Below are positions 7,502 through 7,672 of a DNA stretch of 64,000 nt, one piece after another. The notes beneath the pieces are model-generated. The model had not been told where the DNA came from, searched no databases, and was given only the letters and a program-made list of their open reading frames with translations. This DNA is from Escherichia coli 042 (GTDB taxonomy: Bacteria > Pseudomonadota > Gammaproteobacteria > Enterobacterales > Enterobacteriaceae), in NCBI RefSeq assembly GCF_000027125.1, contig NC_017626.1; one strand, given 5' to 3'. The first letter of the stretch is position 1. Every line of letters starts with the position of its first letter. A program made the translations under genes and the position numbers.

Positions 7502-7672
7502 ATGTTTGTGAAACCTGTTAAAGGGCGGTCAGTGCCTGACCCTGCCCGCGGTGACCTTTTGCCCACCGAAGGGCGAAATGTTGACGAGAACAACTACTGG
7601 CTGCGCCGTGAAGCAGCGGGTGATATCCGGCGCGTGAATAAAAAGGTGAACACCGATGACGACAAGCTTTAA
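7502..7672 (+). CDS. Small conserved protein preceding the sheath gene (56 aa; not in the ORF track)
   Basis: ATG at 7502, open to TAA at 7670-7672, overlapping the sheath start by 17 nt; peptide MFVKPVKGRSVPDPARGDLLPTEG... Confidence 0.45.
   Translation: MFVKPVKGRSVPDPARGDLLPTEGRNVDENNYWLRREAAGDIRRVNKKVNTDDDKL

Follow-up and report, generated by a model that had tools for sequence, protein, structure and literature searches.

The closest described relatives of the gene reported here lie in phage Mu, in phage SfV and in a class of Pseudomonas R-tailocins, and in all three a small gene sits between the gene for the tail terminator and the gene for the contractile sheath. In Mu the product is gp38 (Mup38, AAF01116; 67 aa), the founding member of the DUF2635 family (PF10948, E 2e-22), whose gene lies between those of the terminator (gp37/K) and the sheath (gp39/L), overlapping the former by 14 nt and the latter by 4 nt. 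The 2025 cryo-EM work on Mu, at 3.3-3.5 A, modelled gp29, 34, 36, 37, 39, 40 and 42-49; gp37 caps both the tube and the sheath, the tail lattice is modelled with gp39 and gp40 only, and gp38, gp35 and gp41 are listed as "probably structural" with structures that could not be resolved (PMC11915804). The particles were CsCl-purified (PMC11915804), a step that could strip a weakly bound protein. The Mu record AF083977.1 (locus L004, 2492-2695) labels gp38 a "putative sheath terminator protein", a label left unsupported by the finding that gp37 caps tube and sheath with gp38 unresolved; the same observations speak against gp38 as a sheath-capping ring (PMC11915804). A virion proteomics study of SuMu, of low quality, does not report gp38, and our search of the literature found no genetic or biochemical study of gp38, orf10 or any homolog.

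In SfV the gene is orf10 (AAL89419 / NP_599042), which GenBank U82619 annotates as "similar to phage Mu GP38" and RefSeq names "DUF2635 domain-containing protein"; its counterpart in phage SKA5 is named "protein Mup38". The same gene is found in SfV, SfI, SfII, SKA5 and E. coli prophages (WP_000497757.1).

The tailocin relatives come from headless bacteriocin clusters and not from phages. The element recorded as "phage DVM-2008", 22.7 kb in Pseudomonas fluorescens Q8r1-96, is a headless tailocin cluster: it lacks head genes altogether, consists of prtR, com and holin, then the tail genes, then lysozyme, cinA and recA, and keeps the terminator (Orf9), DUF2635 (Orf10, E 1e-18) and the sheath. 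Elements of this class are functional killing particles from a Mu/SfV-like phage (Hockett et al. 2015, PMC4542187). Carim et al. (2021) found OG18 (terminator), OG19 and OG20 (sheath) adjacent in 12 of 12 Rp4 tailocin strains (Tables S2/S3), placed directly after the holin in strain Pse01, and OG19 is a 182-bp gene whose best phage match is SfV (PMC8319346). The product of this Rp4 gene (PFL_1215 / DVM-2008 Orf10 / OG0000019) is 60 aa long, occupies the slot between terminator and sheath, is about 60% identical to the protein studied here over the domain, and is the only family member with direct protein-level evidence. The tailocins examined by mass spectrometry in Ghequire 2015, BW11M1 and RW10S2, are of type Rp2 according to Carim et al., not of the SfV-like Rp4 type, and the paper on the Marinomonas R-bacteriocin shows no link to SfV or Mu.

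The terminator-sheath junction in the E. coli window

Here we describe the corresponding gene in a window of 64,000 nt from Escherichia coli 042, the window being the whole stretch of DNA that was analysed. Its features, and those of its neighbours, are as follows.

6933..7493, + strand: tail terminator gene (186 aa); PF23840 Phage_tail_terminator, E 1.4e-26; RefSeq "phage tail terminator protein"
7502..7672, + strand: DUF2635 gene (56 aa and stop), ortholog of SfV orf10 and Mu gp38; PF10948, PHROG 208
7502..7636, + strand: predicted folded alpha/beta mini-domain, codons 1-45, from AlphaFold2 and conserved columns
7637..7669, + strand: predicted disordered charged C-terminal tail, codons 46-56, pLDDT about 50; the DNA also encodes the sheath ribosome-binding site
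7643..7648, + strand: Shine-Dalgarno motif AAGGTG of the sheath gene, 7 nt before ATG 7656 and within the small ORF
7656..7672, + strand: 17 nt shared by the DUF2635 gene (3' end) and the sheath gene (5' end)
7656..9152, + strand: tail sheath gene (498 aa), Mu gpL type; PF04984, PF17481, PF17482; PHROG 165, E 3e-231
9152-9508, + strand: tail tube gene; PF10618, E 2.4e-33
9508-9777, + strand: tail assembly chaperone gene; PF10109, E 2.4e-15

The small ORF starts with ATG at 7502-7504, stops with TAA at 7670-7672 and reads out as a product of 56 aa, MFVKPVKGRSVPDPARGDLLPTEGRNVDENNYWLRREAAGDIRRVNKKVNTDDDKL. The sequence-only reading, which had proposed an open frame from ATG 7502 to a TAA that overlaps the sheath start, was exact, and RefSeq holds a CDS at the same coordinates (WP_000497757.1, "DUF2635 domain-containing protein") in a 100%-identical E. 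coli chromosome. Its description of the ORF as unannotated fails for public records: the gene stands as orf10 in GenBank U82619, and a 401-nt region around it is present in 1,073 of 5,426 complete E. coli genomes, with PGAP naming the gene in those sampled. The family is already known, catalogued (as SfV orf10 in GenBank and as DUF2635 in Pfam) and named by PGAP, and finding it here is ordinary. The further suggestion that genes of this size fall below the usual length cut-offs is correct for a few records and wrong for others. In phiP27 (AJ298298 / NC_003356; locus L005, 2501-2662) the DUF2635 ORF is intact (53 aa, PF10948 E 5e-19) yet unannotated, and the SfIV and VIT_AJPSC records likewise lack an annotation of an intact DUF2635 gene. 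Small tail genes are therefore still missing from some phage records, and those of phiP27 and SfIV show that length cut-offs do lose real genes.

The 56-aa product scores 58.8 bits with Pfam DUF2635 (cut-off 26.6; E 4.2e-16), its residues 3-47 aligning above the curated gathering threshold to positions 1-45 of the 46 in the profile, and PHROG 208 matches residues 1-55 with E 2.7e-26. DUF2635 was the sole family above threshold in the Pfam scan, which returned in addition one weak sub-threshold match to an unrelated family, and a search of the product against NCBIfam matched no model. The DNA around the ORF is 98% identical to SfV, with orf10 in the same place and between the same neighbours; the two proteins share 98% identity with the single change T22A, the genes have the same length of 171 nt, and SfV and SKA5 share the 17-nt sheath overlap, so that nothing of substance separates the window copy from orf10 except that it is chromosomal in E. 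coli. Mu gp38 is more distant, at 42% identity over residues 3-54 (E 8e-7), and shares with the window protein an N-terminal domain and a variable tail. The upstream neighbours also differ, since the Mu terminator belongs to PF08873 and that of the window to PF23840. The sheath terminator and tail completion families typified by T4 gp15 and P2 gpS were considered as relatives and rejected: Pfam and NCBIfam gave no homology, and a protein of 56 aa is far smaller. DUF2635 at 7502-7672 is part of the late tail operon of an SfV-like prophage.

The terminator stop at 7493 lies 8 nt ahead of the DUF2635 ATG, the sheath frame is +1 with respect to the small ORF, and the stop of the small ORF lies 17 nt inside the sheath gene, the arrangement expected of a coupled upstream ORF whose stop overlaps or abuts the next start. 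We compared 16 diverse loci, drawn from SfV-like, Mu, lambda-E-type-head and Mu-gpT-head phages together with unrelated metagenomic contigs, and thus representing several different head modules. The gene order was the same in 16 of 16, a terminator-like gene followed by DUF2635, sheath and tube, as the sequence-only reading had anticipated in placing a conserved small protein at the sheath start of Mu-like tail modules. The distance from terminator stop to DUF2635 start ran from -14 to +10 nt, that from DUF2635 stop to sheath start from -17 to +6 nt, and in every one of the 16 the DUF2635 ORF carries within its 3' end an SD-like motif for the sheath. Across these loci tight packing is conserved and the exact 17-nt overlap is not. 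The terminators themselves are divergent, being PF23840 here, PF08873 in Mu and without a Pfam match in six other loci, despite which DUF2635 and the sheath remain recognisable at all of them.

At the junction in the window, an Rfam scan gave no family and no stable or conserved RNA structure was found at the sheath start; the RNA around this start shows less structure than its shuffled versions do (z = +1.37), and no promoter-like or terminator-like sites were found within 7494-7660. Because the sheath has its own AAGGTG motif and an unstructured start region, a strict dependence of its translation on the upstream ORF is disfavoured, and sheath translation probably does not depend on coupling to the small ORF. 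A frameshift fusion of the small ORF with the sheath was considered and rejected, as the sheath, read in the +1 frame, is served by an SD and an ATG of its own and lineages differ in junction length. Further downstream (9744-9926, + strand), a frame of 60 codons overlaps the 3' end of the tail assembly chaperone gene, fills the space behind it and reaches into the tape measure gene, which begins at 9919; it is probably a frameshift extension of the chaperone, and in the Mu record gp41 carries a note of a verified -2 frameshift.

Conservation, selection and predicted fold

The sequence-only reading had suggested tblastn against Mu-like prophages, and this search was positive, returning 50 phage records that include Mu, D108 and SfMu (42% identity, E 8e-7). 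Besides these three, the records cover SfV-like phages, ST64B and phiP27, and span phages of Yersinia, Pantoea, Serratia, Pseudomonas, Burkholderia, Bordetella and Acetobacter. A search with the DUF2635 profile of 1.84 billion cluster representatives (50% identity) found 3,778 clusters at E <=1e-3, and 490 at <=1e-10. Among the best 150 of the 3,778, all but one were 44-100 aa long and carried the domain N-terminally. Across 149 aligned members of diverse origin, G24 and W33 never vary, and P5, G8, P14, L20, R35, R36, G40, D41 and V42 are each at least 90% conserved; the window protein carries every one of these family-conserved residues except for a conservative I42 in place of V. It also has the typical setting, being a small stand-alone protein (56 aa) between a terminator (PF23840) and a sheath of Mu-L type (PF04984), and the genomic contexts surveyed indicate that DUF2635 is specific to the contractile tail modules of the Mu/SfV type.

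One exception to the stand-alone form is P0237, a protein of 402 aa from a metagenome contig (Ga0451687_0002293; locus L095, 3036-4244) and the sole long member among the best 150 family matches. An N-terminal DUF2635 domain is joined through a proline-rich linker to an fn3 domain, which a further region follows; the gene is flanked by those for a gp6-like connector and a head-closure protein, and the locus shows no sheath gene. This fusion hints that a DUF2635 domain can anchor a displayed protein.

The dN/dS of the small ORF is 0.09 against ST64B, 0.12 against EPP-1 and 0.22 against phiP27, at a synonymous divergence of 0.7-1.0, and the sheath, tube and terminator genes range from 0.04 to 0.14 across the same three comparisons. 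The synonymous measure pS lies far above pN in the annotated frame of the small ORF alone, which bears out the conservation of reading frame in related phages on which the sequence-only reading had made its claim depend. These values point to strong purifying selection, similar to that on the neighbouring sheath and tube genes. Among 81 near-identical prophage copies, which comprise 33 DNA alleles, codon position 3 holds 16 of 18 polymorphic sites, a result toward which the set is biased because its members were picked by protein identity. A frame of 56 open codons is expected by chance about 0.07 times per frame ((61/64)^56, our own arithmetic), so that the ORF by itself proves nothing; it is on homology, purifying selection confined to its own frame and a conserved position in related phages that the gene is judged real. 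Taken together, these comparisons make 7502-7672 almost certainly a true protein-coding gene, orthologous to SfV orf10 and Mu gene 38.

AlphaFold2, given the alignment of 149 sequences, returned a confident model with a mean pLDDT of 87, values of 94-97 over residues 1-40, and 45 residues at 90 or above. The model comprises short beta-strands, a helix at residues 31-39 and a final strand at 42-45, followed by 11 disordered residues. Among homologs this C-terminal tail is 10 to 55 residues long and free to vary in sequence and composition; in the window protein it is charge-neutral, with three Lys and three Asp. A sequence search of the PDB gave only a chance match (E 1.6), and Foldseek found nothing significant either in the PDB, where the best match was B. 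subtilis YqbF at E 1.4, or in BFVD, where the matches were other uncharacterised small phage proteins only. With no PDB relative by sequence or by fold, no solved phage tail contains a recognisable relative of DUF2635. Small folds with a weak resemblance to the predicted model are seen in the bL9 N-domain, the GINS B-domain, the C-terminal domain of lambda gpFI (2LSM) and YqbF (2HJQ); all four differ from DUF2635 in genomic context, show no sequence similarity to it, and match with Foldseek E values of at least 1.4, below the level of homology.

Other features of the window

A second small conserved ORF of 66 aa (5522-5722, + strand) lies between the major capsid gene (4267-5472) and a head-tail adaptor gene (5725-6048). 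It matches PHROG 1020 with E 1e-44 and no Pfam family, and equals Sb7 of ST64B; in SfV it is missing, and an annotated terminator takes its place. Comparison of this ORF with DUF2635 by hhalign showed no relation.

A cassette for O-antigen glucosylation (18835-21583, - strand), made up of gtrA, gtrB and a type-specific gtr, closes the prophage; its third gene encodes 490 aa without a Pfam match. Beyond it, at 22032-30146, are genes of the PEBP family, of a class-III aminotransferase and of a biotin-synthase-like radical-SAM protein, with uvrB further on. From the gene order of E. coli we take the first three to be ybhB, bioA and bioB, in which case the prophage would sit in the bio-uvrB region near the lambda attachment site.

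Rfam places a Moco (molybdenum cofactor) riboswitch at 31466-31610 (+ strand, 102.9 bits), which starts about 50 nt ahead of the ORF beginning at 31517 and extends into the opening codons of that ORF, and the ES036 (CssrF) sRNA at 48818-48860 (- strand, 41.5 bits); both are ordinary chromosomal features. ARAGORN calls an 85-nt tRNA-Gly(gcc) at 51326-51410 (+ strand), inside an ORF of 761 codons (49445-51730), and this call is probably a false positive.

Abundance in tailocins and the role of the protein

Protein-level evidence comes from the MudPIT data of Carim et al. for Pse04, Pse05 and Pse06 (Table S4, PMC8319346). In Pse04, OG19 was detected with 93.3% coverage, 69 spectra and an NSAF of 0.026, next to 0.0177 for the terminator, 0.0506 for the sheath and 0.0079 for the tube. 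The corresponding values in Pse05 were 88.3% coverage, 38 spectra and an NSAF of 0.0106, with 0.0059, 0.0553 and 0.0054 for terminator, sheath and tube; in Pse06 they were 55%, 32 spectra and 0.0242, with 0.0030, 0.0242 and 0.0051. NSAF is a rough measure for a protein of 6.7 kDa. OG22, the tail assembly chaperone homolog, ranks near the top of the tailocin-cluster proteins by abundance in the same table, with an NSAF of 0.054 in Pse04 and 0.015 in Pse06. The preparations were crude, obtained as an ammonium-sulfate cut at 30% and containing 8-16% tailocin protein besides hundreds of host proteins (PMC8319346). The abundance of OG22 means that such preparations retain non-structural assembly proteins, or else that the chaperone stays on the particles, and their crudeness means that co-fractionation fits a loosely bound structural protein equally well. 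On the values from these three samples, the tailocin DUF2635 homolog is translated to high abundance, above the terminator, and its co-fractionation with the particles is suggestive only. The retention of the gene where heads are lost points to a role of DUF2635 that is intrinsic to the tail.

The reading that we rank first, tentatively and with slightly less than even confidence, is that the DUF2635 protein is an abundant assembly factor for the sheath step and does not belong to the ordered structure of the completed tail. It would be translated from the mRNA that it shares with the sheath, shortly ahead of it and in amounts well above the six-copy terminator, would bind new sheath subunits, or the growing end of sheath and terminator, and would keep the bound subunits competent for ordered polymerisation on the tube, to be released once the sheath has polymerised. 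Such release on assembly would explain its absence from the ordered lattice of the finished tail. The proposal draws on its abundance above the terminator, the adjacency to the sheath gene, a chaperone-like behaviour in crude preparations and the absence from the Mu lattice; that chaperones do carry through is indicated by the chaperone homolog, equally abundant in the same crude samples. Should this be correct, the tail assembly chaperones (Mu gp41, lambda gpG/GT, P2 gpE/E+E') would offer an analogy, though an analogy only. On this reading DUF2635 would, like them, be small, abundant, encoded beside its client and absent from the finished ordered structure; unlike them, it has no programmed frameshift, its presumed client is the sheath and not the tape measure, and no relation in sequence or fold connects it with them. 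A bolder and considerably more doubtful version holds that DUF2635 is a chaperone or polymerisation gate dedicated to the sheath and not recognised as such before. All contractile tails of the Mu/SfV type, and the tailocins that descend from them, would need it; it would be produced at close to sheath levels and, because it departs on assembly, leave no trace in virion maps.

Against an assembly factor stands the fn3 fusion P0237, which looks more virion-displayed than chaperone-like, and which brings us to the main rival, which we hold to be less probable: that the protein is a true component of the tail or tailocin, its 45-residue domain docked on the sheath surface or at the sheath/terminator end and missed by cryo-EM because it is flexible, sub-stoichiometric or salt-labile. 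The Ig-like fn3 domain of the fusion is of a kind typically displayed on surfaces, the variable low-complexity tails of the family resemble exposed linkers, and the high-coverage co-fractionation with tailocins in three preparations fits as well. The Mu cryo-EM authors, too, count gp38 as "probably structural" (PMC11915804), and the "putative sheath terminator protein" of AF083977 is a version of the same idea. However, the Mu maps model the region of terminator and tail with gp37, gp39 and gp40 only, with gp37 alone as the cap, the predicted model resembles no PDB chain from any solved phage tail, and the tailocin preparations also hold the tail assembly chaperone and hundreds of host proteins. 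We keep the assembly factor ahead of a loosely or flexibly attached particle protein.

The close and invariable company of the terminator gene, with DUF2635 starting -14 to +10 nt from its stop in the 16 loci, could instead indicate a helper that keeps the terminator monomeric until the tail has reached full length, or that readies the top of the tail for joining to the head. This is improbable, given that DUF2635 exceeds the terminator in NSAF by a factor of 1.5 to 8 in the three samples, that its retention in headless tailocins argues against a role in head joining, and that terminators diverge, many having no Pfam match, while DUF2635 and sheath stay recognisable. A little less probable again is an RNA-binding regulator, which would use a fold like the bL9 N-domain, together with its charged tail, to contact the operon mRNA close to where the sheath begins and would thereby tune sheath translation. 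R35 and R36 are conserved and exposed, and the ribosome-binding site of the sheath is embedded in the 3' end of the gene at all loci; yet the fold match is weak and common to pure protein-docking domains (GINS B-domain, lambda gpFI C-domain), the junction has no conserved RNA structure and no Rfam match, high abundance would be atypical of a regulator, and the tail of the window protein is charge-neutral. Finally, the overlap of stop and start with the sheath and the close spacing to the terminator would also suit an ORF whose translation alone matters, delivering ribosomes to the sheath start with the peptide irrelevant, and the roughly 7% chance of an open 56-codon frame leaves room for an ORF that arose by chance. 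Such an explanation is already effectively refuted and highly improbable: the amino acids are under strong purifying selection, residues are conserved across the family and the predicted fold is confident, homolog clusters number in the thousands, the homologous peptide accumulates to high levels in the tailocin preparations, and the start of the sheath is unstructured and equipped with an SD of its own.

The finding itself changes little, the gene being already in GenBank, Pfam and PGAP. DUF2635 is among the best-conserved tail proteins of the Mu/SfV type, abundant and kept in tailocins, yet absent from the "minimal" Mu structure. If it should prove to be a dedicated sheath chaperone or gate, a component would have been absent from the list of "minimal" contractile-tail parts. 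For those who engineer tailocins or reconstitute tails, the gene should probably be kept.
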